The translations under genes were made by a program, and so were the position numbers. From Dehalococcoidia bacterium (GTDB lineage Bacteria; Chloroflexota; Dehalococcoidia; Lucifugimonadales; Australimonadaceae): 64,000 nucleotides of DNA. Positions 38,626 to 58,780 of this stretch are shown in pieces. Below the pieces are notes generated by a model. The model saw nothing but the letters and a program-made list of their open reading frames with translations, did not search any database and was not told where the DNA came from. Position 1 is the first letter of the stretch, and each line of letters begins with the position of its first letter. The stretch covers positions 622,949-686,948 of the forward strand of contig OY764542.1 of the NCBI GenBank assembly GCA_963668465.1, written 5' to 3'.

Positions 38626-38645
38626 AGGCCAGGCACGCTGGATTC

Positions 38646-39673
38646 CCTAAGTTCACAAACGAAGTGCAACACCAGATTAAGGTGTTGCCATGGGAGAGTG
38701 CTATAGCCAGCTCAGCATTGAGGAACGATGTGAGATTGCCCGTCTACATACCAAGGGAGCCTCGATCAGGGAGATCGCAGCAGGTCTGGATCGCCCGGCA
38801 TCGACAGTTGCTCGGGAGTTGAAGCGCAACGGTTCACGAGCCGGCTACCGGGCGGTATATGCGCAGGAGCAGGCGCGTGCGCGTCGTTGGTCCGGAGTTC
38901 GGCTGGAGCGGGATGAGGAGTTGCGCAACGATGTGTTGGAGCGGCTGAAGCTGGGCTGGTCGCCGGAGGCGGTGGCAGGACGGCTGAGGAGAGAACGTGG
39001 CAAGAGCGTCATCTCCCACGAGAGCATCTACCGCTTCATCTATGCCCAGAGCGCACGGCACAAGGACTATGGATGGCGCCACTATCTGCGACAGAAGAGG
39101 TGGAAGCGCGGGAGGAGACGACGCAGGCATAGCCCAGCCTCGTTCATCGCTCACCGTCGCCCCATAGCAGAACGTCCCGCCTCTGTTGCCGACCGGCAGA
39201 CGTTCGGGAACTGGGAAGCGGACGTGATGCAGTTCGGCCGCGCAGGGCAAACGGTGTTGGCGTTGCACGAGCGTCATTCACGAGTGTTGATAGGAGTGCG
39301 GCAGGCTTCGAAGGCCGCCGCACCGATCGCCACGGCCATGGCGGGCATCCTTGGCCCTCTACCACCGGAGTTCCGCCAGACGGTCACCTTTGACAACGGC
39401 ACGGAGTTCGCTCACCACTATGAACTTCACGCCTGGGATATCGAGACGTTCTTCTGCGACACGTACTCGCCGTGGCAGAAGGGAGGCGTGGAGAATGCGA
39501 TTGGACGGATGCGTTGGGTGTTGCCCCGGAAGACGGACCTGGCTGCAGTGTCGGACGAGGAGTTTACGGCGTTGATGCAGGCATACAACAATACGCCGCG
39601 CAAGTGCCTCGACTACCTCACCCCAGCCGAGGTCCTGCTAGACCACGTGTTGCACTTCAAATGTGAATCCACC
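38646..39673 (+). mobile_element. IS30-family insertion sequence, copy 1 (~1028 bp)
   Basis: Imperfect terminal IRs ttcacaaacgaagtgcaacac / gtgttgcacttcaaatgtgaa; TTC (up to TTCCC) duplicated target; matches copies 2 and 3. Confidence 0.92.
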
Positions 39674-39694
39674 TTCCCGCCTGCGCGGGAATGA
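38690..39694 (+). CDS. IS30-family DDE transposase
   Basis: HTH QLSIEER..STVARELKRN, WSPE, WEAD, TFDNGTEF, PWQKGGVEN, NNTPRKCL. Confidence 0.93.
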   Translation: MGECYSQLSIEERCEIARLHTKGASIREIAAGLDRPASTVARELKRNGSRAGYRAVYAQEQARARRWSGVRLERDEELRNDVLERLKLGWSPEAVAGRLRRERGKSVISHESIYRFIYAQSARHKDYGWRHYLRQKRWKRGRRRRRHSPASFIAHRRPIAERPASVADRQTFGNWEADVMQFGRAGQTVLALHERHSRVLIGVRQASKAAAPIATAMAGILGPLPPEFRQTVTFDNGTEFAHHYELHAWDIETFFCDTYSPWQKGGVENAIGRMRWVLPRKTDLAAVSDEEFTALMQAYNNTPRKCLDYLTPAEVLLDHVLHFKCESTFPPARE

Positions 39695-39785
39695 CGGGTG
39701 GGATGCGGGAACGACGGGAGAAAGGGCGTCCCGTCTTTGCTATGCTACGCGCCGCCATATACCACTACGGCAGGAGAGAGAGCAT

Positions 39786-42014
39786 ATGACCACCGCACCA
39801 CGCGTCGTCGGCACACCGGTACCCCGCATCGACGGGCGCGACAAGGTAACCGGCTCGGCCAACTACGGCGCTGACTTCGAGATTCCGGGCACGCTCTGGG
39901 CGAAGACCCTGCGCAGCCCCTTCCCGCACGCACGCATACGCGGCATCGACGCCTCCGAGGCGCGGGCGCTGCCCGGCGTCCACGCGGTGCTCATGGGCGA
40001 CGACATCCCCGACAACATGCGCTGGGGACGGCGCATCGTCGACGTGCCCGTGCTCGCGCAGGGCGAGGTGCGGTTCGTCGGCGAGCAGGTCGCGGCGGTT
40101 GTCGCGGACGACGAGGAGATCGCGCAGCGGGCGCTCGAACTGATCGACGTCGACTACGAGGAGCTTCCCGCGGTCACGGACCCCGAGGAGGCGATGAAGA
40201 ACGAGATACTCGTGAACCCGGACATGCACGGCTTCAAGGGCCTGCTGTACGAGGTGAACGAGCCTACGAACGTCGTCGTGCACTTCGAGTGGAGCAAGGG
40301 CGACGTGGAGGCGGGCTTGCAGCAGGCCGACCTCGTGGTCGAGAACACGTACACGACGCCGTCGCAGCACCAGACGTACATGGAGGCTCACAACGCCACG
40401 GTGCGCGTCAACCCAGACGGCACGGCGGAGGTGTGGACGCCGGGCAAGGCGCCGTACGCGGTACGCACGCAGATATCGGGGCCGCTGGGCGTCGAGCCGG
40501 AGAGCATCGTCTTCCACCCGGTTACCATCGGCGGCGACTTCGGCGGCAAGGGGTCGCCGATGAACGTCGCGCTCGGCTACCTGCTGTCCAAGGCAGCGGG
40601 GAACCGTCCGGTGCGGATGGTGTTCGACTACGCGGAGGAGTTCCTGGCCGCGAACCCGCGCCACTACTCCAAGTTGCGGATGCGCACGGGGGTCAAGAAG
40701 GACGGCTCCATCACCGCGCACGACGTGGCCATCGTGTTCGACAGCGGCGCGTACGCGGGATTCAAGCCCGCGGGGCACCTCGGCGGCGCGAAGGCGGCGG
40801 GCGGACCTTACCGAACGGAAAACGCGCGCGTTGTTGAGGACATGGTCTACACCCACAACACACCGTGCGGACACATGCGCGGGCCCGGCGAGCCGCAGGC
40901 CGTCTTCGCCCTCGAATCGCACATCGACGAGGTCGCCGGTGCGCTTGGCATGGACCCCGTGCAGTTCCGGCTGATGAACCTCGTGGAGGACGGCGAGCCG
41001 ACGGCGCTCGGCGACGTGTTCGTCGAGAACCGGGCAGCGGAGGCGCTCGAAGTTGCCGTCGAGGCGTCGGGCTACAACGCGGCGAAGGCGTCCGGCGTGG
41101 GGCGCGGCGTCTCCGTCGGCGAGCGCCCGCCGGGCGGCGGACGCATCAACTCGCAGGTGTCGATGGAGGCGGACGGCTCCGTGCTCATCACCACTCCCCT
41201 CTTCGAGCAGGGCGCGGGCGCGTACACGGTGCTGCAGCAGGTCGTGGCCGAGGACCTAGGCCTCCCCGCCGACGCCGTGCGGATGGTCGTCGCCGACACG
41301 GGCCTGTTCGACATGGACCAGGGCGTTGGCGGCAGCCGCGTCACGAACCTCGGCACCGTCGCCACACACGAGGCCGTCGGGCAGGCGCAGGAAGAGCTGT
41401 TCAAGCTCGCGGCGGAGCTGCAGAACTGGCCGGAGGAGAAGCTCGTCGTGCAGGGGCAGATGCTCGTGCGGACGGACACCGGCGAGTCGCAGCCGTGGAG
41501 CAACCTCATCGCTCGCGTGGGCACGCCCGTCGTCGGGCGTGGGGTCGCCTCGGGCGGCTACGAGAACCCCGTCACCGGCTACTGCGCGCAGATCGCCGAG
41601 GTCGAGGTCGATGCGGAGACCGGCCAGATACGGCTGACGAAGCTCACGACCGTCCACGACACGGGCACCATCATCAACCCCATCGGCCACCAGGGCCAGA
41701 TCAACGGCGGCGCGATGATGGGCATCGGCTTCGGTCTGCAGGAGGAGCTGGTGCGGGAGAACGGCTTCATCTCCACGCTCTCGTTCGCGGACTACAAGAT
41801 ACCCAACATCGCCGACATCCCCGAGCTCACGACGGTTGTGCTCGACACGCCGGGCAAGGGCGTCGGCCCGTACAACATCAAGGCCATCGGCGAGAGTCCC
41901 AACGCGCCGACCGCGGCTGCTATCGCGAATGCCATCGCCGACGCCTGCGGCGTGCGCGTACGCGACTTGCCGGCGACGGCGGAGAAGGTCTACGAGGCGT
42001 TGCAGGATGCGTAG
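39786..42014 (+). CDS. Xanthine dehydrogenase-family molybdopterin-binding subunit
   Basis: DGRDKVTG, LRSPFPHARI, GGDFGGK, MRGPG.PQ, EQGAG, GQINGG..MGIG, KAIGE. Confidence 0.9.
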   Translation: MTTAPRVVGTPVPRIDGRDKVTGSANYGADFEIPGTLWAKTLRSPFPHARIRGIDASEARALPGVHAVLMGDDIPDNMRWGRRIVDVPVLAQGEVRFVGEQVAAVVADDEEIAQRALELIDVDYEELPAVTDPEEAMKNEILVNPDMHGFKGLLYEVNEPTNVVVHFEWSKGDVEAGLQQADLVVENTYTTPSQHQTYMEAHNATVRVNPDGTAEVWTPGKAPYAVRTQISGPLGVEPESIVFHPVTIGGDFGGKGSPMNVALGYLLSKAAGNRPVRMVFDYAEEFLAANPRHYSKLRMRTGVKKDGSITAHDVAIVFDSGAYAGFKPAGHLGGAKAAGGPYRTENARVVEDMVYTHNTPCGHMRGPGEPQAVFALESHIDEVAGALGMDPVQFRLMNLVEDGEPTALGDVFVENRAAEALEVAVEASGYNAAKASGVGRGVSVGERPPGGGRINSQVSMEADGSVLITTPLFEQGAGAYTVLQQVVAEDLGLPADAVRMVVADTGLFDMDQGVGGSRVTNLGTVATHEAVGQAQEELFKLAAELQNWPEEKLVVQGQMLVRTDTGESQPWSNLIARVGTPVVGRGVASGGYENPVTGYCAQIAEVEVDAETGQIRLTKLTTVHDTGTIINPIGHQGQINGGAMMGIGFGLQEELVRENGFISTLSFADYKIPNIADIPELTTVVLDTPGKGVGPYNIKAIGESPNAPTAAAIANAIADACGVRVRDLPATAEKVYEALQDA

Positions 42015-42029
42015 GCGGCGTGCACAGGG

Positions 42030-42195
42030 TGTCATGCTGAGCGCAGCCGAAGTATCCCTCGGGGGACGTTGGCGTATGCGGACGCTTGCCCGAGAGATTC
42101 CTCGGCTACGTTGCACTTCGCTCGGAATGACAAGCCACCCTGCCCCACACCGGCGTACCCTCACCCTAGCCCTCTCCCCTTGTAGGGAGAGGGGA
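42030..42195. repeat. TGTCAT inverted pair plus CCCTCACCC..GGGAGAGGG module
   Basis: tgtcatgctgagcgcagccgaag ... cttcgctcggaatgaca; ccctcaccctagccctctccccttgtagggagagggg (also at ~20452). Confidence 0.8.
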
Positions 42196-42217
42196 TCAGG
42201 CAGGGACGGGTAACCGT

Positions 42218-43846
42218 ATGGATGAACTACGACCCATAGGAGAGGTGGCGCGGAGCCTTGGCATCGCTCCGAAGCACCTCATCCCCTTCGGCGACAGCAA
42301 GGCGAAGGTGTTGCTCGACGCGATGCGGCCGGAGCAGAAGGGGAAGCTCATCGTCGTGACGGGCGTGAACCCAACGCCTGCGGGTGAGGGCAAGACGACC
42401 ACGAGCGTCGGGCTTACGCAGGGGCTGGGGAAGATCGGCAAGAGCGTCGTGACGACGCTTCGGGAGCCGTCGCTCGGGCCGATATTCGGGATCAAGGGCG
42501 GCGGCACCGGCGGGGGCAGGGCACGCGTCATACCGGAGGACGAGATCAACGTCCACTTCACCGGCGACGCGCACGCCGTCTCATCCGCGCACAACCTCCT
42601 CGGCGCACTCGCGGAGAACGTCATCTACCGCGGGCGCATCCCCGGTACGAAGCCGTCCGACATCACCTGGCGCCGCGTCGTCGACATCGAGGACCGCGCG
42701 CTGCGCAGCATCGTCTCCGGCCTCGGCGGCTCGGCGAACGCCCCGCTGCGCGAGACCGGGTTCGACATCGTGACTGCGTCCGAGATCATGGCCGTGCTCG
42801 CGCTCTCGTCCGGGCTGGACGACCTGCGCGCCCGCCTCGGCAGGATCACGGTCGCCACGGGAAGCGGCGGGGCGCGCGTGACGGCGGAGGACGTGGGGGC
42901 GGTCGGCTCGCTGATGGCGCTGCTGCGGCACGCCATCCTCCCGAACATGGTGCAGACCACGGAGGGGCAGCCGTCGTTCGTGCACACCGGGCCGTTCGGC
43001 AACATCGCACACGGCTGCAGCTCGGTCGTCGCGGACCGGCTCGCGCTCGGCTACGCGGACTACGTCGTGACCGAGGCGGGGTTCGGCGCAGACCTCGGCT
43101 TCGAGAAGTTCATGCACATCAAGTGCCGCACCAGCGGCCTGCGCCCGAGCGCGGCGGTGCTCGTGGGCACCGTGCGGGCGATGAAGCACCACGGGGGCGT
43201 CGCGATCAAGGACCTGGACTACCCCGACCCGCTCTCCGTGCGCATCGGCTGCGCGAACCTGCAGCACCTCGTCGGCGTCGTGCGCAAGTTCGGCCTGCCG
43301 GTCGTGGTTGCCATCAACCACTTCCCTTCCGACACGCCGGAGGAGACGGTGGTGATGCAGGACGCAGCCATCGAGGCGGGAGCGTCGCAGGCGGTCGTCT
43401 GCAGCGGCTTCATGGACGGCGGCGAGGGCGCGGTGGAACTCGCGGAGGCGGTTGCGCGCACGTCGGAGGCGGGCCCGCCCCGGGCGAGGTGGCTGTACCC
43501 GCTCGACGCTCCGCTGCGGGAGAAGGTGCGAGTGCTCGCGGAGACGGTCTACGGCGCGTCGGACGTGCGCTGGAGCGCGCCGGCGTCGCGGCAACTCGAA
43601 CGGTTCGAGGAGCAGGGGCTCGGCGGCATGCCCATCTGCATGGCGAAGACGCCGCTCTCCATCTCGCACGACCCGTCGCTCAAGAACCGTCCGAGCAACT
43701 ACACGTTCGAGATATCGGACGTGCGGGCGTCGACCGGCGCGGGGTTCGTCTACCCCATCGCGGGCAACATCGTCACGATGCCCGGCCTGCCCGGCACGCC
43801 ACGGGCGCTCGACGTCGACAGCAAGGGGAACATCACCGGGCTGTAG
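42218..43846 (+). CDS. fhs: Formate--tetrahydrofolate ligase
   Basis: PTPAGEGKTT, LREPSLGP.FGIKGG, HFTGD, GPFGNIAHGC, TEAGFGADLG, CMAKT, TMPGLP. Confidence 0.93.
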   Translation: MDELRPIGEVARSLGIAPKHLIPFGDSKAKVLLDAMRPEQKGKLIVVTGVNPTPAGEGKTTTSVGLTQGLGKIGKSVVTTLREPSLGPIFGIKGGGTGGGRARVIPEDEINVHFTGDAHAVSSAHNLLGALAENVIYRGRIPGTKPSDITWRRVVDIEDRALRSIVSGLGGSANAPLRETGFDIVTASEIMAVLALSSGLDDLRARLGRITVATGSGGARVTAEDVGAVGSLMALLRHAILPNMVQTTEGQPSFVHTGPFGNIAHGCSSVVADRLALGYADYVVTEAGFGADLGFEKFMHIKCRTSGLRPSAAVLVGTVRAMKHHGGVAIKDLDYPDPLSVRIGCANLQHLVGVVRKFGLPVVVAINHFPSDTPEETVVMQDAAIEAGASQAVVCSGFMDGGEGAVELAEAVARTSEAGPPRARWLYPLDAPLREKVRVLAETVYGASDVRWSAPASRQLERFEEQGLGGMPICMAKTPLSISHDPSLKNRPSNYTFEISDVRASTGAGFVYPIAGNIVTMPGLPGTPRALDVDSKGNITGL

Positions 43847-43891
43847 GCGTCTCCTCCACTCCCAGCGCAGCGATGAAGGGAGGTTCAGGCC

Positions 43892-44257
43892 ATGGAGCCA
43901 CAACGGTTCAGTTACCAGCGTCCGGAGAACGACCGGGCGAAGAACCTGACGCCCCTCTGCCACACCGACAGGCTGTGGGCGGACATGCAGCTCGTGAAAG
44001 AGGGCGGCGAGAACAAGCTGCACAGCCACACGGTGAGCGACGGGTTCTTCATGGTGATACAGGGCGCCGCGAAGTTCTACGGCGAAGGCGACGTCCTGCT
44101 GGCCGAACTGGGGGCGCAGGACGGGGTCGTGATGCCGCACGGCTTCAAGTACTGGTTCGAGAGCTCGGGGACGGAGCCGCTGCAGTTGTTGCACGTTGCG
44201 GCCAGCGACCCGAATCTCAGGGACGTGCGCGTCGGGCCGAGCCGGGAGTCGGGGTAG
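43892..44257 (+). CDS. Cupin domain protein
   Basis: GGENKLHSH..DGFFMVIQG, MPHGFKYWF. Confidence 0.8.
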   Translation: MEPQRFSYQRPENDRAKNLTPLCHTDRLWADMQLVKEGGENKLHSHTVSDGFFMVIQGAAKFYGEGDVLLAELGAQDGVVMPHGFKYWFESSGTEPLQLLHVAASDPNLRDVRVGPSRESG

Positions 44258-44467
44258 GCGGATCGGCCGGCGTTCACCGACGATTGTGCGCAGGGTTTCG
44301 CTTGTAGGGCGACAGGTTCCCCGAAGGGCACCCACAAGGGATGCCCCTACACCAGGCCAGGCGATCCGAGCAGGGCATCCACGAGGGATGCCCGTACACC
44401 GGGCCAGCCGAGAACAGGCGATGCCACGCACTGCACCGCCTCGTGACCTGGCGGTCACCCTGGATTC

Positions 44468-45495
44468 CCTAAGTTCACAAACGAAGTGCAACACCAGATT
44501 AAGGTGTTGCCATGGGAGAGTGCTATAGCCAGCTCAGCATTGAGGAACGATGTGAGATTGCCCGTCTACATACCAAGGGAGCCTCGATCAGGGAGATCGC
44601 AGCAGGTCTGGATCGCCCGGCATCGACAGTTGCTCGGGAGTTGAAGCGCAACGGTTCACGAGCCGGCTACCGGGCGGTATATGCGCAGGAGCAGGCGCGT
44701 GCGCGTCGTTGGTCCGGAGTTCGGCTGGAGCGGGATGAGGAGTTGCGCAACGATGTGTTGGAGCGGCTGAAGCTGGGCTGGTCGCCGGAGGCGGTGGCAG
44801 GACGGCTGAGGAGAGAACGTGGCAAGAGCGTCATCTCCCACGAGAGCATCTACCGCTTCATCTATGCCCAGAGCGCACGGCACAAGGACTATGGATGGCG
44901 CCACTATCTGCGACAGAAGAGGTGGAAGCGCGGGAGGAGACGACGCAGGCATAGCCCAGCCTCGTTCATCGCTCACCGTCGCCCCATAGCAGAACGTCCC
45001 GCCTCTGTTGCCGACCGGCAGACGTTCGGGAACTGGGAAGCGGACGTGATGCAGTTCGGCCGCGCAGGGCAAACGGTGTTGGCGTTGCACGAGCGTCATT
45101 CACGAGTGTTGATAGGAGTGCGGCAGGCTTCGAAGGCCGCCGCACCGATCGCCACGGCCATGGCGGGCATCCTTGGCCCTCTACCACCGGAGTTCCGCCA
45201 GACGGTCACCTTTGACAACGGCACGGAGTTCGCTCACCACTATGAACTTCACGCCTGGGATATCGAGACGTTCTTCTGCGACACGTACTCGCCGTGGCAG
45301 AAGGGAGGCGTGGAGAATGCGATTGGACGGATGCGTTGGGTGTTGCCCCGGAAGACGGACCTGGCTGCAGTGTCGGACGAGGAGTTTACGGCGTTGATGC
45401 AGGCATACAACAATACGCCGCGCAAGTGCCTCGACTACCTCACCCCAGCCGAGGTCCTGCTAGACCACGTGTTGCACTTCAAATGTGAATCCACC
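44468..45495 (+). mobile_element. IS30-family insertion sequence, copy 2
   Basis: Same ends and interior as copy 1; flanks ctggattc / ttcccgttttcacgggaatgac. Confidence 0.92.
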
Positions 45496-45516
45496 TTCCC
45501 GTTTTCACGGGAATGA
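44512..45516 (+). CDS. IS30-family DDE transposase
   Basis: Identical to copy 1 except target-derived C-terminus FPFSRE. Confidence 0.93.
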   Translation: MGECYSQLSIEERCEIARLHTKGASIREIAAGLDRPASTVARELKRNGSRAGYRAVYAQEQARARRWSGVRLERDEELRNDVLERLKLGWSPEAVAGRLRRERGKSVISHESIYRFIYAQSARHKDYGWRHYLRQKRWKRGRRRRRHSPASFIAHRRPIAERPASVADRQTFGNWEADVMQFGRAGQTVLALHERHSRVLIGVRQASKAAAPIATAMAGILGPLPPEFRQTVTFDNGTEFAHHYELHAWDIETFFCDTYSPWQKGGVENAIGRMRWVLPRKTDLAAVSDEEFTALMQAYNNTPRKCLDYLTPAEVLLDHVLHFKCESTFPFSRE

Positions 45517-45615
45517 CGATGGGGAGGGGGCTTGCCGCGCAGGAGAGGGGAACACGGACGTAACCCGAAGGGCACCCACAAGGGATGCCCCTACATTGGG
45601 TCAGCCGAGAGCTCG

Positions 45616-46860
45616 TTAGACCTTGGGGAGGCACTGTTTCCAGTCGGCGCCGGTGGGGAGGACGGAGGTGATCATGTAGGGGTAGTCGTGGAACTGGTTC
45701 TCTTCGGAGGTCCAGGCGAGGCCGGGTGGGTCGCCGCCTTCCGCCATGGTGCGGACGGCCTCGAGCATGAAGCGGCGCATCGCGATGATGTGCATGTCAC
45801 TGGCGCCGAGGTTCTCCTGGGTCCTGTCGCTGATGGCCCCCATGCTCTCGGTCACCATCTTGTCCTGCGTGTGGTTGCGGGCGGCGACCCCGCACCAGTA
45901 GTCGCCCGACTTCTGCTCCTCGCGGCTGAGCTGGTAGTGGTTGGCGCGGGTGTAGTAGCTCATGAAGTCCGGGCCCACCTCTGCGCGGTCACTCTGAGCG
46001 TACGAGTCGTCGACGCTCTTGTCCCACCAGACTTCGAAGTCGTAGCGCCAGTTGGTGTAGTCGTCGGCGGGCACCTGGTAGATGGTGTGGACGGCCTCGT
46101 TGTAGCCGTTGGGGGAGTCGCCGCGCGGGGTGTTGCCGATGCAGGGCATGAGGAAGGTGTTGGTGCGCACCATCTCCCGGGCGTCGTCGTAGGGGTAGAT
46201 TGTCGCGGCGCGGACGCCCCATGGCAGCCTGTCGATGGCGACGCGGGCCGGACGGCGGCGCGCCTGGTTCATGGGGTTGTCCTCGCCGGATATGCGCCGG
46301 TGGAGGTACGCGGAGTGGATGCTGTCGTTGTCGCCCTCAAGGGCCTGGAGCCAGTTGCACTCCAGGAAGAGCTTGCTACCGACGACGACGTGGTCGCGCG
46401 GCAGGGTGAACCACGGGAGGTTGGGGACAAGGGGCGTCTTGTCCTTCGGCCCCATGTAGGTGAGCACGACGCCGTTGCGCTCCTCGCACGGGTAGGACTT
46501 GTGCTGGATGGTGTCCTTCAGCCTGCTGGTCTCCGGCTCGGCGGGGATGTCCAAGACCGTGCCTTCCACGTCGTACTGCCAGCCGTGGTAGATGCACGTG
46601 ATGCTGCAGTTCTCCACGCGTCCGTAGAAGAGCGAGGCTCTGCGGTGCGAGCAGTACTCCCCGAGCAGCCCCACCCTGCCGTTGCTGTCGCGGAAGGCGA
46701 CGAGGTCCTCGTTGAGCAACTTGACGCGCACCGGAGCGCAGTCCGGCTCCGGCAGCTCCTCGGAGAGCAGCGCCGGTATCCAGTAGCGGCGAAACAGGTC
46801 GCCCATCGGCGTTCCGGGCCCGACACGGGTCAGGATCTCGTTGTCCTCGGCGATAGACAT
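45616..46860 (-). CDS. Rieske non-heme iron oxygenase alpha subunit (phthalate dioxygenase-like)
   Basis: MSIAEDNEILTRVGPGTPMG; YCSHR..TCIYHGW; EGDNDSIHSAYLH; GGAGG RBS. Confidence 0.9.
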   Translation of the reverse strand: MSIAEDNEILTRVGPGTPMGDLFRRYWIPALLSEELPEPDCAPVRVKLLNEDLVAFRDSNGRVGLLGEYCSHRRASLFYGRVENCSITCIYHGWQYDVEGTVLDIPAEPETSRLKDTIQHKSYPCEERNGVVLTYMGPKDKTPLVPNLPWFTLPRDHVVVGSKLFLECNWLQALEGDNDSIHSAYLHRRISGEDNPMNQARRRPARVAIDRLPWGVRAATIYPYDDAREMVRTNTFLMPCIGNTPRGDSPNGYNEAVHTIYQVPADDYTNWRYDFEVWWDKSVDDSYAQSDRAEVGPDFMSYYTRANHYQLSREEQKSGDYWCGVAARNHTQDKMVTESMGAISDRTQENLGASDMHIIAMRRFMLEAVRTMAEGGDPPGLAWTSEENQFHDYPYMITSVLPTGADWKQCLPKV

Positions 46861-46951
46861 GACACACCTCCCCAAGTGTTACGTCAGCGACCATGGGCCG
46901 CATGATGATTGCAACTATAGCCCCGGCGGGATACGTGTCAACGCGGCTGCG

Positions 46952-48458: not shown

Positions 48459-48462
48459 GGAA

Positions 48463-50686: not shown

Positions 50687-50786
50687 GTTCCGAAACGGGC
50701 GTGTTCTTCTTGACACGCATGAGAGCGGTGTCCATCATGAGCGGCCAGCGCCGGATCTGATGGCGAATTCAGGGCAGGAGGGCGTC

Positions 50787-51992
50787 ATGGGAAAGCGAAA
50801 CAGGATGTGGCGGCTCCTTTCAGGGCTAATCCTCGCCACCGGACTCGTGGCGGTGCTTGCCGCGTGTGGTTCCGACCCGACGGCGACGCCGACGCCGGTC
50901 CCGCCGACGGCTACACCCACTGCCGCCCCTGCCATGGGAGCGACGGCTGAGCCTAGCGCTCCGGCAACAGCGACACCGGTACCTGTGCCATCATTCGACG
51001 CCGAGGCTTACTTCGCCGGCAAGACGTTGCGCGTCGTGGTGGCCTGGGACCCGGGCAACAGCATCGACGCACACGCACGAGCGGTGTCGCGAGTGCTGCC
51101 CAGGTACATCCCCGGCAACCCGAAGTCCATCGTCGTGAACAAGGACGGCGCAGCCGGCACGGCTGGCGGGAACTGGTGGCACGAGAACGCGGAGGGCGAC
51201 GGCCTCTGGCTGCTCGCAAACACCGGCGCGAACCCCATCTCCCAGATCCTGCGCCCGGGGGTACGGTACGACTTCCGCGATTACACGTCGATCGGCGGCA
51301 TCATGCAGCGCACGACGATGTGGATGGCCTCAGGCGACGCTCCTTACAGCCGCATCCAAGAGGCCTCCGGCGGCACGGAAGAGTTCACCGTTGGGTTGAA
51401 CACCGAGTCCGAGACCGGGACGGCGAAGGCGCTCGCACTGGCGCAATGGCTCGACCTGCCGATGAGGCCGCTGTACGGCATCGGGTCCGGCTTCTCCGCC
51501 TACCTGACCACATTCGACCGTGGCGACGCCGACAGCTACATCTCCGGCAGCGCCTGGTACCGCACGCCTGGCTCGCGTCCGGGCTGGTTCACCGACGGCG
51601 TCGTGCAACCGTTCGCGATGCTGGGTTCACCGGATGTCTTCGCCAACAACGGCGAGATAGACGTGCCCGACGACCTGCCACCGATAACCGAACTGCTGAC
51701 CGACCAGCAGAAGCTGATCTGGTCCGGCATGAACCTCGAAGACACGGCGTTCTACCGCGGCCTCTTCACGCCGAAGACGGTCGAGCCAGAGGTGCTTGCC
51801 GTGCTGCGCAAGGCGTTCGACGACATGTTCAACGACCCTGAGTACCAGGAGATCTACGAGAGCCTCGTCGGTCTCCCGGTCGACCAGGGCGGCAGGCTTC
51901 CGCCCGAGGTCGTGAACGAGGCGCTGGACAACTGGGCTGCGAACGCAGACGCGATCAAGGCGGTGTACGCACAGTTCCTTCCGGAGCAGTAG
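50787..51992 (+). CDS. Tripartite tricarboxylate transporter substrate-binding lipoprotein (TctC-like)
   Basis: Lipobox LAAC, PT linker, FAGKTLRVVV..PG..D..AR, PGNP..IVVN..GAAG. Confidence 0.8.
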   Translation: MGKRNRMWRLLSGLILATGLVAVLAACGSDPTATPTPVPPTATPTAAPAMGATAEPSAPATATPVPVPSFDAEAYFAGKTLRVVVAWDPGNSIDAHARAVSRVLPRYIPGNPKSIVVNKDGAAGTAGGNWWHENAEGDGLWLLANTGANPISQILRPGVRYDFRDYTSIGGIMQRTTMWMASGDAPYSRIQEASGGTEEFTVGLNTESETGTAKALALAQWLDLPMRPLYGIGSGFSAYLTTFDRGDADSYISGSAWYRTPGSRPGWFTDGVVQPFAMLGSPDVFANNGEIDVPDDLPPITELLTDQQKLIWSGMNLEDTAFYRGLFTPKTVEPEVLAVLRKAFDDMFNDPEYQEIYESLVGLPVDQGGRLPPEVVNEALDNWAANADAIKAVYAQFLPEQ

Positions 51993-52081
51993 AGAGACTT
52001 CGTGAACCGGCCAGCCGTTTCCCCTAACAGGGACGGCTGGCCGCTGCTCATCAGCACTTAACGCCTAAGGAGTCAGGCAGA

Positions 52082-54169
52082 GTGGCCGAGTACATTGCCG
52101 CCCTGGGGTTCCTCGGAGACCCGCTCTACTGGACGATGCTGGTGTTGGCGGTCGTGCTGCTGGGAACGATCGGCCTCATCCCGGGGCTGGGCAGCACGAC
52201 CATCGCCGCCATCGCCATCCCGTTCCTGCTGTTCAACTTCGGCGACAACCCCACTGCCGGCATCATCTTCCTTGCGGCGCTCGGCGGGCTGAACAACACG
52301 CTGGACTCGGTGCCCGCGGTGCTGCTGGGCTACCCGGGCGCCGCCACGCAGGTCACGTTCCTCGAAGGCCATCAGCTCGCGATGCGGGGACGGGCCGCGC
52401 ACACGCTGGGGGCCATCTACGCGGTGTCCGCCATCGGCGGAGTGGTCGGGGCGATAGCGCTGCTGGCCATGATCCCGTTCATGCGCCCCATCCTGGTCCG
52501 GTTCTCGTTCCCTGAGATCGCGGCTATGGCGATGTTCGGCGTGCTGATGGTGTCCGTACTGAGCCGAGGCGCGATGATCAAGGGGGTCATCGCCGGCCTG
52601 CTCGGCGTTCTGGCCAGCACCATCGGGACGGACGGCATCCAGGGCCTTCCACGGCTCACCTTCGAACAGGTCTACCTGCTGGACGGGCTCCCACTCATCC
52701 CGACGCTCATCGGGTTCTTCGCGCTCCCGGAGCTGATCGACCTCACCATGACGGGGCGGCCGGTCTCCCAGCCGGGAACGGTCTCGACCAAAGAGGTCTT
52801 CTCGGGGGCGCGGTACGGCGCGAGCAAGTGGCGGATAGCGATCCGGCAGAGCATCTTCGGCGTGTTCATGGGAGCGATCCCGGGGATCGGGAGCGCTGTC
52901 ATCGACTGGCTCTCGTACGCGTTCGGCATGGCGTTGTCGAAAGACAAGACCGGTTTCGGCAAGGGGTCGCTGGACGGCGTGCTCTTCGCCGAGGCAGCCC
53001 AGAACTCGAAGGAGGGCGGCCAGGCGATCCCCACGCTGGCGTTCGGCATCCCCGGCGGCTCTTCGTGGGCCATCGTGCTCGTCGGGCTCCTCTTCTACGG
53101 CATAGCTCCGGGACTGGGGATGCTCGACCAGCACCTGGACGTGATGGTCGCCATCGTCGTGACGCTGGCCCTGGGCAACCTGCTCATCACCATGATGGGG
53201 ATCGTGGCGACCGGTCAGCTCGCGAAGGTGACGCTGGTGCCCTACCCGCTGCTGGCGGCAGCCCTGTTCCCGCTGGTGTTCATCGCGGCGTTCCAGTCCA
53301 CGACGGCGTGGGGCGACATCCTCGTGCTCATCGGAGCGGGCATGCTCGGCCTCGCTATGAAATGGCTCGGCTGGCCGCGGCCTCCGTTCATCCTCGGCTT
53401 CATCCTGGGGCCCATCATCGAGAAGAACCTGTGGACGGCATTGAACGTGTTCGGCCCGGTGGGGATGCTCACGCGACCTATCTCGATCATCCTTTTCATC
53501 TTCGCGGTGCTGAGCGTCATCTACCTGACCAAGGCGATGGCCACGGGGACGGCGATCAGCAAGATCGCTTCTACCGCGGCCCCGCAAGGCGGCGTGCCGC
53601 CTGTGCAGGGTGGATCAGGAGACGAGCCGTCCACGGCAGCCAGGGCTTCCGGATGGAGCAGGATACTTCCGGGCCATCCCCGCATCGGCTGGACGTGGGA
53701 GTCGTCTTTCCCCTTCGCAGTGCTGGCGATAGTCGTCCTGTTCATCATCGACGTGAGCGCGTTGAGGACCGGGGCTGCGAAGTTCCTGCCGCTCTACCTC
53801 AGCATCGCTCTCATCCCGCTCATCCTGTACGAGACCTTCCGGATGAACGTATACCGCTCAGAGCGGGTGGACATCATGGACCTGGGGATGCGGACAGGCA
53901 CAGACCGGATAGCGTTCCGCGCGTTCCTGGGAATCTCGGCATGGCTGGCCGCCATGGTCATCGGCGGCGCCATATTCGGACTGCAGTACGCCACTGTAGG
54001 ATTCGCTGTCCTGTTTGGATTCGCAACGCTGAAATGGCGAGGCCGGAAGAGACTCTGGGCGCTGGTGCCCGGTGTGATCGTGGCTATCGTCGTATTCGGA
54101 GTCCTGGACCAGATCATGCACGTCATATGGCCCGACCGCGTTATACTCGACGCGCTTCTCGGGCGGTAA
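52082..54169 (+). CDS. TctA-family permease fused to a C-terminal TctB-like membrane domain
   Basis: GLIPGLG, LLGYPG, EAAQNSKEGG..IPTLAFGIPG, GFILG..IE; extra ~150 aa multi-TM C-terminus after a linker. Confidence 0.85.
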   Translation: MAEYIAALGFLGDPLYWTMLVLAVVLLGTIGLIPGLGSTTIAAIAIPFLLFNFGDNPTAGIIFLAALGGLNNTLDSVPAVLLGYPGAATQVTFLEGHQLAMRGRAAHTLGAIYAVSAIGGVVGAIALLAMIPFMRPILVRFSFPEIAAMAMFGVLMVSVLSRGAMIKGVIAGLLGVLASTIGTDGIQGLPRLTFEQVYLLDGLPLIPTLIGFFALPELIDLTMTGRPVSQPGTVSTKEVFSGARYGASKWRIAIRQSIFGVFMGAIPGIGSAVIDWLSYAFGMALSKDKTGFGKGSLDGVLFAEAAQNSKEGGQAIPTLAFGIPGGSSWAIVLVGLLFYGIAPGLGMLDQHLDVMVAIVVTLALGNLLITMMGIVATGQLAKVTLVPYPLLAAALFPLVFIAAFQSTTAWGDILVLIGAGMLGLAMKWLGWPRPPFILGFILGPIIEKNLWTALNVFGPVGMLTRPISIILFIFAVLSVIYLTKAMATGTAISKIASTAAPQGGVPPVQGGSGDEPSTAARASGWSRILPGHPRIGWTWESSFPFAVLAIVVLFIIDVSALRTGAAKFLPLYLSIALIPLILYETFRMNVYRSERVDIMDLGMRTGTDRIAFRAFLGISAWLAAMVIGGAIFGLQYATVGFAVLFGFATLKWRGRKRLWALVPGVIVAIVVFGVLDQIMHVIWPDRVILDALLGR

Positions 54170-54199
54170 ACCGCATCGCGACCGATAAAGGAGGCACCC

Positions 54200-54787
54200 A
54201 TGCGCCGCACAATGATCCGACAGACCACAGCCGCAGCCATCATCGTGGCGCTTGGACTGGCGTTACTCGTCGCCCTGTTGCCGGGAGTCACGCCGTTCGG
54301 CTCCGAGGCCCGAGGACAGGACGGCGATTCCGCGCCGAGCGTCGTTGTCTGGCCGGGCGTCGGAGAACTGCATAGCGGCAGCAGCTTCGCGATCATGGGC
54401 ACCGGTTTCGAGCCGGGGCAGGAGATCCATGTGGTGCTGCAGACGAGCATCGGGCGAGGCTTCGCCGGCACCGTCCTGAACGAGATCACCGGGAACGTGC
54501 AGCCGCCGATCGAGGTGGTGGACGAGTCGGGGAACTTCGCCGCACGCTTCGACATGGGGCGGTTCGAGCGCGTGATGTCGGAAGGCATCGCGGGCATCAG
54601 CGTGACCGACGCCGAATTCAACGTGCTGGCGTCGACTCCCGTAGCGATGTGCGACCCGCAAGGCCGGTCGCGGGTGGGTGTGTACCCGCAGGCCCCGCCG
54701 GACTACGCAGCAGACCCGGATGACCCGCGCCCGAGCACGTACTGCGCCGGTTTCTTCGAGTACCCCGAACGCCCCGACGCAGGTTAG
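54200..54787 (+). CDS. Exported hypothetical protein
   Basis: AGGAGG RBS, signal peptide, GTGFEPGQEI..VDESGNF beta-rich pattern. Confidence 0.7.
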   Translation: MRRTMIRQTTAAAIIVALGLALLVALLPGVTPFGSEARGQDGDSAPSVVVWPGVGELHSGSSFAIMGTGFEPGQEIHVVLQTSIGRGFAGTVLNEITGNVQPPIEVVDESGNFAARFDMGRFERVMSEGIAGISVTDAEFNVLASTPVAMCDPQGRSRVGVYPQAPPDYAADPDDPRPSTYCAGFFEYPERPDAG

Positions 54788-54809
54788 TCCGCGCTCACAT
54801 ATCGGCAAG

Positions 54810-54835
54810 GAAGGGCCAGCTCCCGCTGGCCCTTC
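54810..54835. terminator. Hairpin terminator between convergent genes
   Basis: gaagggccagc-tccc-gctggcccttc. Confidence 0.6.
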
Positions 54836-54871
54836 TGTCGTGCGTCGGCGGCAGGGGCTGTCCCTCGTCCC

Positions 54872-56239
54872 TTACGGAGAGCGCGACTCCAACAGGTCCG
54901 CAACCTGCATCCCCGTGCTGTAGCCGCTGGAGAGGGCGCCGTTGACCGACGGCACACGCATGTAGTCTCCCGCCAGGAAGAGGTTGTCGAAGCGCCCTGC
55001 CATCTGCCCAGGGACGTTTGCCATCGCGGCGAGCATGCCGGGGTCCCCCATGCACAGCGCCTGCTCCCAGCGGTACACGCGGAAGAACAGCCCCTCGTCG
55101 TCGCCGGGGAGAGCGGAGCCCGGAGGAGCCTTCCGGCGGGCGGCGCCCAGCAGCTGGCGCTTTATCTCGTCGTCGTCGAGAGGGATGAGCTCTTTGGCGC
55201 GGTCGCGCCCGATGAGCAGGTCGAGGATGCTCTTGCCCGGAGGCGCGCAGGCAGGGAGGAAGGCGCACCTGTCCAGCAGGAGCGGGGTGTCGTCGTCCTC
55301 CGGGTAGAGCGCGCCATGCCAGCCGGGAGGGAGTGGGGCGTGGTCGAGGCCTATCACCACCCGGCAACCGGTCGAGTAGCTGACGGTGTTGAACGCGCGG
55401 CGCGTCTCTTCCGGCAGATCGGGAATGAGGTCCGGGACTTTCGTGCCGGGGACGGCGCAGATGACCGCGTCCGCCTCGATGGTCTCGCCGTCCACGACTA
55501 CGCGGGCAGCCTCCCCGTCTGCGGCAACGATCCTCCTCACGGGGGTCGATACTCGAATCGCATCCGAGCAGGCATCGGCGAGGGCCCCGCTCAGGGAGCC
55601 GATGCCTCGCTCAGGCATGTAGACCCTGCCGGAGTGCAGCATCGTCTCTCCGATGTACGCCCGCATCAGCGCCTGACCTGCGGGCATCGGGTCGCCCAAT
55701 ATCATGTCGAGGGGCCCTCTGAGCGTGACCTGCAGGTTCTCGGGCACCCGGAGGCGCTTCAGGTAGTCGCCGAAGGACTCATCGTCGTCGATCTCGGCGA
55801 GGGGGCTGTCGCCGGCGAAACTCATGTATGCGGACTGGCGATGGATCTGCCGCATCACCGCAGAGCCAGCCCGCATCCCTGAGGGTGAGAGGAAGCCCAT
55901 GGTGAAGGCCGTACGCAGGTGCCTTACGAAGTTCCAGAGCGATTGGTCCGGCGTCGTGGTGACCCACCGGCCATTGCGATGGTGGCCGAACTTCATCTTG
56001 GACGGGACCAGCGGCAGTCCCAGCTCCTCGCAGAGGCGGAACGCGGTGTCGTAGGTGTAGGTGAAGACGAATGCGCCCATGTCCAAGGAGAAGCCGTCCA
56101 CCTTCTCGCCCCTGCCGCGTCCGCCCACATGCTCCTCGGCCTCGAGCAGGAGCGGGGTGATGCCCCGCTTCATCAGTGCGTAGGCGGCGCTGAGCCCGGC
56201 GAAGCCCCCACCGACTATGACGACCCGCTGTGCGGTCAT
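54872..56239 (-). CDS. FAD-dependent oxidoreductase (protoporphyrinogen oxidase/amine oxidase-like)
   Basis: VIVGGGFAGLSAA, EAEEHVGGR, DMGA, LFLAGDY..NGALSSG. Confidence 0.85.
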   Translation of the reverse strand: MTAQRVVIVGGGFAGLSAAYALMKRGITPLLLEAEEHVGGRGRGEKVDGFSLDMGAFVFTYTYDTAFRLCEELGLPLVPSKMKFGHHRNGRWVTTTPDQSLWNFVRHLRTAFTMGFLSPSGMRAGSAVMRQIHRQSAYMSFAGDSPLAEIDDDESFGDYLKRLRVPENLQVTLRGPLDMILGDPMPAGQALMRAYIGETMLHSGRVYMPERGIGSLSGALADACSDAIRVSTPVRRIVAADGEAARVVVDGETIEADAVICAVPGTKVPDLIPDLPEETRRAFNTVSYSTGCRVVIGLDHAPLPPGWHGALYPEDDDTPLLLDRCAFLPACAPPGKSILDLLIGRDRAKELIPLDDDEIKRQLLGAARRKAPPGSALPGDDEGLFFRVYRWEQALCMGDPGMLAAMANVPGQMAGRFDNLFLAGDYMRVPSVNGALSSGYSTGMQVADLLESRSP

Positions 56240-56271
56240 GAGCGCGGTCCCTTCAAGAGTTGCCTTGGATG

Positions 56272-56348
56272 TGGTGGGCCGGGCAGGACTTGAACCCGCG
56301 ACCAGACGATTATGAGTCGTCCGCTCTGACCAACTGAGCTACCGGCCC
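56272..56348 (-). tRNA. tRNA with CAT anticodon (probably tRNA-Ile2, lysidine; elongator Met not excluded)
   Basis: GGGCCGG TAGCTCAGTTGGTCAGAGC GGACGACT-CAT-AATCGTC ... GGTTCAAGTCC ... CCGGCCC ACCA. Confidence 0.92.
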
Positions 56349-56397
56349 CGGGCACTAGTATATGCGCCGCGCTGAAACACGGGGGAAGGCGACGCAG

Positions 56398-56425
56398 CAA
56401 GCCCCTCGCCTATGCGAGGGGCTTG
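56398..56425. terminator. Hairpin downstream of Clp-N gene
   Basis: caagcccctcgc-ctat-gcgaggggcttg. Confidence 0.55.
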
Positions 56426-56458
56426 TCATGATTCCGCAGAAACGATGAGTCGCGCTGG

Positions 56459-57412
56459 CTAGTCGGCTTCCGGGGGCATCCCGCGAATGACGGAGGCCAC
56501 GCGGTCGGAGGTGATGCCGGAGCTGTCCAGCAGCTGTCCGGCCACGTCCTCGGGGTTCTCCACGAGTGCGAGCAGCAGGTGCCCGGTGCCGACGGTGCGA
56601 AGGCCGCCGTTGCGGGATATGCGTACCGCCCGCTCGATGACGCGCTGGCAGCGCTGGGTCATGCTGGCGGTCCCGCCGAAGAGCGGGCCGCGCCTGCTGA
56701 TGATGCTCTCGATCTCGCGCCTGATGGACGCGGGGTCAGCCCCGAGTTCCGCGACTATGCGCGCGGCCTGTGAGCGCGAATCGCTCAGCACGCCGAGGAG
56801 CAGGTGCTCCGTGCCCATGTTGGACTGCTCGAAGCGCTTGGCCTCCTCCTGCATGAAGGAGAGCGCCCGCCACGCAAGGCCGGTGAAACGTCCCGGAGCA
56901 GCGTCGCGCGTCGCGCCGCCACCGCTCGAGCGCTGCGTCAACGCCACGGCGGCGCCCTCGTCGGGCGGCGCCTTCAAAAGCACCCGCAGGCCCAGTGTCC
57001 CGAGCAGCAGAGCGCCCAGCGACGTCGCAATGACCATCCGTCCGGGGATGCCGACCAGGAAGGAAGGCAGGCCGAGGAACGTGCCGGAGTTGAAACGCTC
57101 CAGCGGGATGAAGAGCATGAGCACAAGCGGGGCCACGACGAAGACGTAAATGAGCCACGAGTATCGCGTCCCGTACTGCGCGCTGCCTCGAACGCCCACG
57201 ATCATCGCACCGCCCACGACTATCCCGATGACACCGACAAGCAGTGTCCGCAGGTACGCGGCCAGATTGCTGAGTGCGCTTGGGAGCGGCCCGTGACCCA
57301 GAGTGCGGTCCGTGCCTTCCGCGAACCACATCGCGACGAGCAGCAATACCCAAAGGACTACCGAGGCCAGGATTACGGAGGTTGCCTGTCGAGCAGGAGA
57401 CTTCTCGATCAT
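56459..57412 (-). CDS. Membrane protein with C-terminal Clp N-terminal (Clp-R) repeat domain
   Basis: Four hydrophobic segments, then RFT..A.RAL..QEEA..GTEHLLLG ... VGTGHLLLAL; no AAA+ module. Confidence 0.78.
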   Translation of the reverse strand: MIEKSPARQATSVILASVVLWVLLLVAMWFAEGTDRTLGHGPLPSALSNLAAYLRTLLVGVIGIVVGGAMIVGVRGSAQYGTRYSWLIYVFVVAPLVLMLFIPLERFNSGTFLGLPSFLVGIPGRMVIATSLGALLLGTLGLRVLLKAPPDEGAAVALTQRSSGGGATRDAAPGRFTGLAWRALSFMQEEAKRFEQSNMGTEHLLLGVLSDSRSQAARIVAELGADPASIRREIESIISRRGPLFGGTASMTQRCQRVIERAVRISRNGGLRTVGTGHLLLALVENPEDVAGQLLDSSGITSDRVASVIRGMPPEAD

Positions 57413-57658
57413 GTTCACACTGAAGCGGTCTATGCCGCGAGGTATTCTCAGATACCCTACTTTACCCGCAAGATCCAGCCGCGAGAAGGATTCAGCCTTC
57501 CCTGTTTGAGGCTATTGGCAAGCCCTCTTCCTCGGGCGCAGCGCACTTCTTCCCACCCACCCGCCCGGTACGTTGTGGGGGACACCCCCACACCCCCGAG
57601 AGCCCTCACCCCTGCCCCGCCCCACCGCGAGCGGCTCTCTGCGCCGCTCCCTGGATTC

Positions 57659-58686
57659 CCTAAGTTCACAAACGAAGTGCAACACCAGATTAAGGTGTTG
57701 CCATGGGAGAGTGCTATAGCCAGCTCAGCATTGAGGAACGATGTGAGATTGCCCGTCTACATACCAAGGGAGCCTCGATCAGGGAGATCGCAGCAGGTCT
57801 GGATCGCCCGGCATCGACAGTTGCTCGGGAGTTGAAGCGCAACGGTTCACGAGCCGGCTACCGGGCGGTATATGCGCAGGAGCAGGCGCGTGCGCGTCGT
57901 TGGTCCGGAGTTCGGCTGGAGCGGGATGAGGAGTTGCGCAACGATGTGTTGGAGCGGCTGAAGCTGGGCTGGTCGCCGGAGGCGGTGGCAGGACGGCTGA
58001 GGAGAGAACGTGGCAAGAGCGTCATCTCCCACGAGAGCATCTACCGCTTCATCTATGCCCAGAGCGCACGGCACAAGGACTATGGATGGCGCCACTATCT
58101 GCGACAGAAGAGGTGGAAGCGCGGGAGGAGACGACGCAGGCATAGCCCAGCCTCGTTCATCGCTCACCGTCGCCCCATAGCAGAACGTCCCGCCTCTGTT
58201 GCCGACCGGCAGACGTTCGGGAACTGGGAAGCGGACGTGATGCAGTTCGGCCGCGCAGGGCAAACGGTGTTGGCGTTGCACGAGCGTCATTCACGAGTGT
58301 TGATAGGAGTGCGGCAGGCTTCGAAGGCCGCCGCACCGATCGCCACGGCCATGGCGGGCATCCTTGGCCCTCTACCACCGGAGTTCCGCCAGACGGTCAC
58401 CTTTGACAACGGCACGGAGTTCGCTCACCACTATGAACTTCACGCCTGGGATATCGAGACGTTCTTCTGCGACACGTACTCGCCGTGGCAGAAGGGAGGC
58501 GTGGAGAATGCGATTGGACGGATGCGTTGGGTGTTGCCCCGGAAGACGGACCTGGCTGCAGTGTCGGACGAGGAGTTTACGGCGTTGATGCAGGCATACA
58601 ACAATACGCCGCGCAAGTGCCTCGACTACCTCACCCCAGCCGAGGTCCTGCTAGACCACGTGTTGCACTTCAAATGTGAATCCACC
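57659..58686 (+). mobile_element. IS30-family insertion sequence, copy 3
   Basis: Same ends and interior; flanks ctggattc / ttcccgccttcgcgggaatgac. Confidence 0.92.
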
Positions 58687-58707
58687 TTCCCGCCTTCGCG
58701 GGAATGA
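57703..58707 (+). CDS. IS30-family DDE transposase
   Basis: Identical to copy 1 except target-derived C-terminus FPPSRE. Confidence 0.93.
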   Translation: MGECYSQLSIEERCEIARLHTKGASIREIAAGLDRPASTVARELKRNGSRAGYRAVYAQEQARARRWSGVRLERDEELRNDVLERLKLGWSPEAVAGRLRRERGKSVISHESIYRFIYAQSARHKDYGWRHYLRQKRWKRGRRRRRHSPASFIAHRRPIAERPASVADRQTFGNWEADVMQFGRAGQTVLALHERHSRVLIGVRQASKAAAPIATAMAGILGPLPPEFRQTVTFDNGTEFAHHYELHAWDIETFFCDTYSPWQKGGVENAIGRMRWVLPRKTDLAAVSDEEFTALMQAYNNTPRKCLDYLTPAEVLLDHVLHFKCESTFPPSRE

Positions 58708-58780
58708 CTAGTGAAGGCGGGAACGACGGGTGAAGGGGGAATGACGGATGAAGGGTGAATGACGGGTGAGGAGGTGACGG
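58699..58780. repeat. Degenerate ~18-19-bp tandem repeat of the REP right arm (GGAATGACGG-TGAAGG)
   Basis: gggaatgactagtgaaggc, gggaacgacgggtgaaggg, ggaatgacggatgaagg, gtgaatgacgggtgagg, ggtgacgg. Confidence 0.7.

Follow-up and report, generated by a model that had tools for sequence, protein, structure and literature searches.

The window considered here, a stretch of 64,000 nucleotides from contig OY764542.1 of a Dehalococcoidia bacterium (positions 622,949 to 686,948 of the forward strand), contains three copies of a 1028-bp insertion sequence (IS), which are identical in every base and which split copies of a dispersed hairpin repeat at an identical base, all in one orientation. On the left each copy adjoins CTGGATTC, on the right TTCCCG-N6-CGGGAATGAC; when the copies are aligned, the constant stretch consists of CTGGATTC, the element and TTCCCG, and divergence starts outside it. 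The element ends in imperfect inverted repeats (IRs) of 27 bp, with 19 of 27 positions paired. The open reading frame (ORF) of its transposase starts 44 nt inside the left end, meets no stop codon in the element and is closed by a TGA 18 nt past the right end. The features of the three loci, all on the + strand, are the following.

38646..39673, +, IS copy A, 1028 bp, CCTAAGTT...GAATCCACC (from the alignment; a 1028-nt unitig has exactly these ends)
38646..38672, +, left IR of copy A, 27 bp, pairing with the right IR at 19 of 27 positions (read from the alignment)
39647..39673, +, right IR of copy A, coding for ...HVLHFKCEST, with a TGA in another frame (read from the alignment)
38690..39694, +, transposase ORF of copy A, 334 amino acids, of which 1-328 are encoded by the IS and the last six (FPPARE), like the TGA, by the repeat
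38638..38645, +, left part of the split target of copy A, CTGGATTC, the last 3 nt being one copy of TTC
39674..39695, +, right part of the split target of copy A, TTCCCGCCTGCGCGGGAATGAC, with the second TTC, the complete palindrome with its 6-bp stem and the TGA stop
44468..45495, +, IS copy B, 100% identical to A (alignment, genome search)
44512..45516, +, ORF for the transposase of copy B, ending in FPFSRE (positions derived by offset from those of copy A)
44460..44467, +, left part of the split target of copy B
45496..45517, +, right part of the split target of copy B, with the loop TTTTCA
57659..58686, +, IS copy C, 100% identical to A (alignment, genome search)
57703..58707, +, ORF for the transposase of copy C, ending in FPPSRE (positions derived by offset from those of copy A)
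57651..57658, +, left part of the split target of copy C
58687..58708, +, right part of the split target of copy C

Judged by its sequence, the element is an IS30-family IS with one DDE transposase gene. The transposase scores 238.2 bits against the IS30-family model NCBIfam NF033563 (cut-off 80) over residues 38-305, and PF13936 (HTH_38) finds an N-terminal helix-turn-helix at residues 5-47 with 58.2 bits; the Pfam model rve gives 21.2 bits, which is under its cut-off. Both the assignment to IS30 and the three identical copies at one base and in one orientation had been put forward in the original prediction, made from the letters of the window, and both agree with the profile score and the alignment. 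Members of the IS30 family are typically about 1.0-1.25 kb long, with one near-full-length ORF and imperfect terminal IRs, and the present element fits this size pattern with its 1028 bp, an ORF from nt 45 to past the end and IRs of 27 bp. Residues D178, D235 and E268, in the motifs WEAD, TFDNG and GGVEN, are arranged as D-56-D-33-E, with E 33 positions past the second D; they are probably catalytic, as this spacing fits the family rule D-(54-61)-D-(33)-E (PMC2516522). No IS name was attached to any of the 10 protein clusters that were looked up.

The genome is a single contig of 3.24 Mb with 65.5% G+C, within which the window lies. It contains 17 intact copies of the element, 100% identical to each other, and one copy that is split by another IS. 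When all of these were collected for target and orientation, 17 of the 18 (16 intact ones and the split one) were found in the repeat, at the same base and in one orientation relative to its asymmetric sequence, so that the earlier view of a site- and orientation-specific IS on an abundant host repeat holds genome-wide. When the flanks of an insertion are joined, the rebuilt target matches the empty repeats. The insertion point is one fixed position, used in one orientation, in a 28-bp asymmetric hairpin repeat, (C/T)CTGGA-TTC^CCG-N6-CGGGAATGACG. A 635-codon open frame contains the single off-target copy, which has no palindrome beside it and whose transposase frame meets a stop after 5 codons. 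What is left of a related IS, 85 bp of its right end (85% identical; G000:C1:2087732-2087816), also adjoins a right repeat half at the standard base.

The duplicated target is TTC in 14 of the 17 intact copies and in the split copy, and it is ATT, CTC and ATC once each. The CTC copy sits in a degenerate repeat, the ATT copy is shifted by one base in a repeat with a loop one base short, and the ATC copy is the off-target one. Because these three copies exist, the duplication is 3 bp long and not 5; of the two lengths entertained originally, TTC remains and TTCCC is ruled out.

The copies are not products of the assembly. An independent unitig assembly of a public run, which may be the window's own sample but was assembled by a different method, contains a contig of exactly 1028 nt that equals 38646-39673. 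Its depth of 226, as against about 13 in the flanks, is in keeping with about 17 copies, and both junctions are bridged by other contigs; an assembly artefact is excluded by the unitig, its depth and the bridging contigs. There has been a recent burst of identical copies in this genome.

The copy that is split is broken at IS position 582-586 by a 2547-bp element (G000:C1:330035-332581) with imperfect terminal repeats of about 28 bp, a 5-bp duplication and a 524-residue ORF with an N-terminal helix-turn-helix. It is present in the genome in seven copies that are 99.7-100% identical (one lacks 150 bp), next to two relatives with 80% identity. We would guess it to be of IS21 type.

That the palindrome halves are target and not element follows from four kinds of observation, made on the possibility, raised together with the original prediction, that the flanks are part of the element. 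The 100% identical copies have different flanks and loops, and the differences are of the kinds that occur between empty repeats. Beside the off-target copy there is no palindrome. The repeat at genome position 2099798 is empty here, and the orthologous site in a sister genome is filled, with TTC duplicated. Furthermore, five sister genomes without a DNA match to the IS have 53-132 repeats each.

The stop codon of the transposase gene comes from the target, as had been claimed together with the tails FPPARE, FPFSRE and FPPSRE; ORF and alignment bear this out. The duplication that is made on insertion restores the complete six-base-pair stem at the right junction, and the last six codons are read through it. 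Among the 120 closest protein clusters of a large protein collection, with 65-98% identity, 94 end exactly six residues after the IS-encoded ..(F/L)KCEST and 26 run on. In 103 of these 120 clusters, the second and fifth tail residues are such as complementary codons would encode (P/R in 76, L/Q in 20, R/P in 5 and Q/L in 2), and these pairings match the stem codons CCG/CGG and CTG/CAG. Because residues 2 and 5 covary in the way of a DNA palindrome, the tail is to be seen as a translated hairpin and not as a conserved peptide. A role of the hairpin as an RNA structure at the 3' end of the transposase message was considered and rejected: with folding z-scores of -2.8, -1.7 and -2.1 for the three 46-nt hairpin contexts, only copy A has the expected hairpin as its minimum-energy fold, and no T-run comes after it.

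In representatives at 40-46% identity, the protein ends in ..VAL(Q/E)x. The window's right IR, when read in another frame, gives R-V-A-L-Q-M-stop, with the TGA inside the IR. These protein tails and the window's own right IR are the basis on which we suggest that the clade lost an IR-internal stop by a frame change upstream. DNA of the sister group with the ..VAL(Q/E)x ending was looked for in 300 sampled genomes of the phylum, where a search with one protein gave only elements of the present clade (the clade on NTS repeats, for which see below), and in a plasmid collection, where there was no match.

Consider now the repeat itself. Its core, TTCCCG-N3-9-CGGGAA, occurs 14 times in the window, against an expectation of 0.03; three cores adjoin IS copies and 11 are empty, close to the dozen first estimated. 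The empty cores are these.

3827..3844, -, empty repeat core
7581..7598, -, empty repeat core
8804..8821, -, empty repeat core
9011..9028, -, empty repeat core
15569..15586, +, empty repeat core
18895..18912, +, empty repeat core
18981..18998, +, empty repeat core
26209..26226, +, empty repeat core
27061..27078, +, empty repeat core
28075..28092, +, empty repeat core
36978..36995, +, empty repeat core

Two families of repeats can be told apart. Family A, (C/T)CTGGA-TTCCCG-N6-CGGGAATGAC, has 93 exact empty and 15 exact occupied sites in the genome. Family B, GCGAGG-TTCCTG-N6-CAGGAACGAC, has 62 exact sites, of which none is occupied, and its stem has G-C in place of the outermost A-T pair, which leaves it without the TGA. 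Its members in the window are the following.

7407-7428, family B repeat
15501-15522, family B repeat
28547-28568, family B repeat
37018-37039, family B repeat

The difference in occupancy, 15 exact copies in family A and 0 of 62 in family B, has a Fisher p of 0.0012. Repeats of the B type are unused by this IS and are used by related ISs in sister genomes. Within family A, the loop TTTTCA is present at 9 of 15 occupied and 3 of 93 empty sites (p = 2.4e-7), so bases as far as 12 nt rightward of the cut have an influence.

The repeat had been labelled a repetitive extragenic palindrome (REP), and this label needs correction. With PF01797, the single-contig genome gave no match to a Y1/RAYT gene, in a search whose control matched 6 of 14 known genomes, and since no such transposase gene was found, a classical REP system of the RAYT type is rejected for this genome. 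In sequence, the repeat is instead an 'Ssn-related motif' of the NTS/dRS3 type. NTS is the 28-nt 'Neisseria transformation sequence' CGTCATTCCCGCGMAVGCGGGAATCYRG (PMC11893778), which includes the dRS3 pattern ATTCCC-N8-GGGAAT (PMC11893778; PMC3898611), and family A is its reverse complement. The published consensus occurs 37 times exactly in the genome, 63 times with at most one mismatch, which is the criterion of the NTS paper itself (PMC11893778), and 100 times with at most two; a shuffled sequence gave 0. The dRS3 pattern is found 85 times.

Ssn-related motifs are described as hairpin repeats in diverse phyla, at which small GIY-YIG nucleases, Ssn, bind and cut single-stranded DNA; the Ssn genes are often flanked by the repeats, and the base just outside the hairpin is the most important one for binding of the nuclease (PMC11893778). 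In Neisseria, dRS3 is also the integration site of the filamentous phage Nf1/MDA (PMC3898611). Four matches to PF01541 (GIY-YIG) were obtained in the present genome: a 289-codon frame, a 106-codon frame and a 47-codon fragment, all three without a repeat within 1.5 kb, and a 663-codon frame, far longer than the 94-aa SsnA. At G000:C1:2405443-2405538, a GIY-YIG-like fragment (MGFHVYLLHCADGSYYTGHTDNLEARL...) ended by TGA lies in the spacer after a 264-residue ORF, with no repeats nearby.

How copies behave in relatives was followed by a DNA search over 60 related genomes. Of the 21 other species in the genus, 14 have the IS or relatives of it with 63-96% identity, as do two further families of the order. 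A set of 43 copies from 11 of these genomes was compared, these being all full-length or nearly full-length matches that could be parsed (locus L041 could not and was dropped). Their ORF is open through the end of the IS in 43 of 43, and 40 of them stand in the repeat in the standard orientation; the other three have a right flank that is not repeat. The frame ends at the TGA 18 nt out in 28 copies. Eleven are in variants without the TGA, GAACGAC or in one case GAAGAC, where the tails have from 12 to more than 66 extra codons, and one adjoins an altered, poly-C version of the repeat. Identity among the copies of one genome is mostly 97-100%, so several distinct IS 'species' of the clade have recently been active. 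In one sister genome, 90 repeats lack the TGA and a single one has it, and there are at least 5 IS copies which are 96-99.8% identical and have tails from 11 to more than 66 codons; 4 of 5 have full-length ORFs, with tails of 11, 16, 20 and 32 codons. In two other genomes, copies in TGA-less variants are 100% identical to their siblings.

In an evenly drawn sample of 400 genomes from the phylum, homologues with 62-70% protein identity were found in 15 further genomes of four families. At 25 of 27 such loci the order is TGGATTC, IS, TTCC(C/G)G-N6-C(C/G)GGAATGAC, with the stop at +18, and the five of these 15 genomes in which intact repeats were counted have 24-138 each. Taking order and phylum together, 65 of 70 examined copies are in the repeat and none has a stop inside the element, and a comparison of relatives had been proposed from the outset. 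The related ISs across the phylum form a clade with like targeting behaviour.

Two further loci deserve separate mention. L061 (G056:C1:1892891-1893531) is an internally deleted derivative of about 245 bp with the left and right ends of the related IS joined, which adjoins a repeat half and has differing flanking triplets. At L027 (G056:C1:3038574-3042600), an off-target copy, the stop-less transposase ORF extends 1374 nt into the flank, and the resulting 788-codon frame may fuse the transposase to the neighbouring gene.

These data are quite probably to be read as follows: the element would be an active IS30-family IS with strict site specificity, and the capture of a stop codon would be a tolerated by-product of this specificity rather than a device. 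The transposase would insert at one position and in one orientation of the hairpin repeat, by a staggered 3-bp strand transfer at TTC in the left arm. By analogy with the IS30 family, transposition would proceed by copy-out-paste-in through a junction of left and right IR (IRL-IRR; PMC9333248), and the target would be chosen by the N-terminal helix-turn-helix region reading duplex DNA. As its point of reference the transposase probably uses the right arm and the adjoining TGAC, because in two repeats that have an indel the insertion is displaced just so far that the TGA is still 18 nt away. When landing always occurs 18 nt upstream of the TGA of the conserved repeat, the ORF would leave the element through the right IR and end there, and it is because of this landing site that ORFs of the clade end in the repeat. 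As an intergenic target, the repeat would at the same time be a harbour in which genes are rarely broken. After insertion, the G just left of the hairpin stays on the left flank, with the IS between it and the hairpin; because the G is parted from the hairpin in this way, an occupied repeat is probably lost to the Ssn system.

Several points weigh against this interpretation. An IRL-IRR junction was not seen in the contigs, which could not show one. The bases read by the transposase we infer, and the right-arm ruler is drawn from two cases, which survival of in-frame stops explains equally well. The use of family A, with 0 of 62 in family B, is also what a stop-codon filter predicts, although families A and B differ in the flank and in both arms as well, and not in the TGA alone. 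The strong excess of the TTTTCA loop at occupied sites finds no explanation in it. Finally, no ssnA-like gene flanked by repeats was present among three of the four PF01541 matches, each checked over 1.5 kb.

Four other accounts can be compared with strict specificity and a stop codon captured in passing. If the palindrome halves were part of the element, or the repeats were footprints or derivatives made by the IS, one would expect like flanks beside related ISs in distant genomes, which are indeed seen, and the IR tips do resemble the left arm of the repeat, with TGGATTC common to both. But identical copies have varying flanks, the off-target copy has no palindrome, an orthologous site exists in empty and filled form, the independent unitig stops exactly at the 1028-bp ends, genomes without a match to the IS carry 53-132 repeats each, and the same repeat, which has its own nuclease partner, is known from Neisseria and other bacteria; this account is scarcely conceivable. 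It is also very improbable that the transposase is unspecific, and that selection purges insertions elsewhere so that the harmless ones in repeats remain. Off-target events do happen, and the single off-target copy here is in a long open frame, but the precision to a single base and the single orientation in 17 of 17 copies are beyond the reach of selection, the 170 exact repeat sites of 22 bp make up only about 0.1% of the 3.24-Mb genome, and copies that are all 100% identical leave little time for purging.

The remaining two accounts accept the specificity and differ from ours in what the missing stop means. According to the original prediction, correct termination is a built-in selection for fidelity: the loss of the internal stop would be adaptive, since only copies on target would make an active, properly ended transposase. 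In line with this, a stop in the element is absent from all 88 copies (18 in this genome, 43 in the order, 27 in the phylum), the TGA at +18 is the majority state in each set (17 of 18, 28 of 43 and 25 of 27), the two shifted insertions keep the stop in frame, and none of the 62 TGA-less family B repeats is used in this genome. Such a filter is nevertheless distinctly unlikely, and the idea of built-in selection is left unsupported, because TGA-less variants are used and the IS has multiplied there: the sister genome with 90 TGA-less repeats and one with TGA has at least 5 copies, with 4 of 5 ORFs full length, and in two other genomes copies in such variants are 100% identical to siblings. Moreover, the tail shows the covariation of a DNA stem and no conservation as a peptide, a stop usually comes soon in GC-rich DNA, after 5 codons in the off-target copy, and IS1239 is reportedly expressed with variable, flank-encoded C-termini (PMC13630536). 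Rather doubtful, finally, is a bolder account, in which an IS30 clade and the NTS/Ssn repeat system are old partners, at least phylum-wide. The clade would have dropped its own stop, which its sister group apparently still has as a TGA within the right IR in another frame, and would depend on the T-GA at the hairpin edge that the host keeps for its nuclease acting on single-stranded DNA. The copies on target would be the sole makers of the standard transposase of 334-336 residues and so the sole effective source copies. As each insertion takes away the base next to the hairpin on which nuclease binding depends most, the IS would erode the host's set of NTS site by site.

How do these properties compare with those of known elements? 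IS1655, a member of the IS30 group, makes a 3-bp duplication. Like IS30 and IS1655, the present element has a single DDE transposase with an N-terminal helix-turn-helix, imperfect IRs, a duplication of 2-3 bp and marked target specificity; IS30 and its relatives use long near-palindromic hot spots or IR-like targets, and show orientation specificity when they target IRs (PMC9333248). Unlike those two, the present element goes to a hairpin repeat dispersed in the host genome, which it enters in the left arm and not at the centre of a palindrome, and its ORF lacks an internal stop. A Sphingomonas plasmid carries an IS30-family element, with a 41% identical protein, that also differs, in that its ORF stops well before the right IR.

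REPs are targeted by IS1397, ISKpn1 and ISPsy8 of the IS3 family, by IS621, ISPpu9 and ISPa11 of the IS110 family and by others of the IS4, IS5 and IS256 families (PMC1525189; PMC12288879). These share with the present element that they are site-specific in repetitive extragenic palindromes and that the joined flanks rebuild the repeat (PMC1525189; PMC12288879), but the five families surveyed in the available part of PMC1525189 do not include IS30. In the present case, furthermore, the repeat is NTS/dRS3-like, no RAYT was found and the target supplies the stop. IS870 and ISMt1 are discussed in PMC13630536 with reference to Fournier et al. 1993. Their stop is made from a CTAG target, and, as here, the element has no stop and a specific target supplies it (PMC13630536). 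Unlike here, the stop lies within that 4-bp target and not 18 nt away, past a translated hairpin, and the IS family is another. IS1239 from Streptococcus pyogenes is counted among the IS30 family. Together with IS1547 and IS1110 it has variable C-termini encoded by the flank; it resembles the present element in that no stop lies inside, for which the authors blame a 1-bp deletion, and differs in that its sites vary and its tails range over 3-171 bp, as opposed to one site and one tail length (PMC13630536, in the available text of which the term IS30 does not occur). As to Neisseria, the target repeat here fits both the 28-nt NTS consensus and ATTCCC-N8-GGGAAT, and dRS3 is already an integration site, but its known user is a phage with its own transposase in a host of another phylum, and an ssnA flanked by repeats was not found here among three of the four GIY-YIG matches.

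In the literature covered, which did not extend to subscription journals, ISfinder and supplements, we found no account of an IS30-family element with REP or NTS repeats as its target. Homing to repeats and stop codons supplied by the target are each known; their combination, their occurrence in the IS30 family or their occurrence with NTS repeats is, as far as we found, undescribed. With the present element, the IS30 family would join the ISs known to home to dispersed palindromic repeats, and the recently described NTS/Ssn-related hairpin repeats would gain a second and widespread user besides the Neisseria phage. A target of 28 bp, precision to a single base, one orientation and many natural variants of target and tail make the system readily testable, and work on it could reveal how a transposase of the IS30 type recognises a target that is long and asymmetric; as insertion tools, DDE transposases with site and orientation specificity also have practical interest. 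In annotation, it should be noted that the transposase genes of this clade legitimately extend beyond the end of the IS, and gene callers give many lengths for one protein.

Two features of the IRs are offered as leads only. The TGGATTC that the right IR has in common with the left arm of the target could be mimicry, and the chance of such a shared 7-mer is about 0.1 by a rough count. In a hypothetical IRL-IRR junction with a 2-3 bp spacer, TTCAAA (right end, 12 nt from the tip) and TAAGTT (left end, 2 nt from the tip) would come to lie 16-17 nt apart.

In public sequence data, three contigs of a run labelled sponge metagenome (X6) are at least 99% identical to window positions 38644-39612, i.e., most of the IS without flanks, and runs labelled viral metagenome contain a quarter of the sampled words. 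None of the sequencing runs listed was an RNA run. Directly upstream of copy A, at about 38400-38640, there is a short tandem duplication, the ORF translations of which repeat ...PLHRAPPCPA.HPHPSLPP. Because contigs of two public runs omit 57-66 nt of it (38471-38538), this tandem array seems to vary in length among samples.

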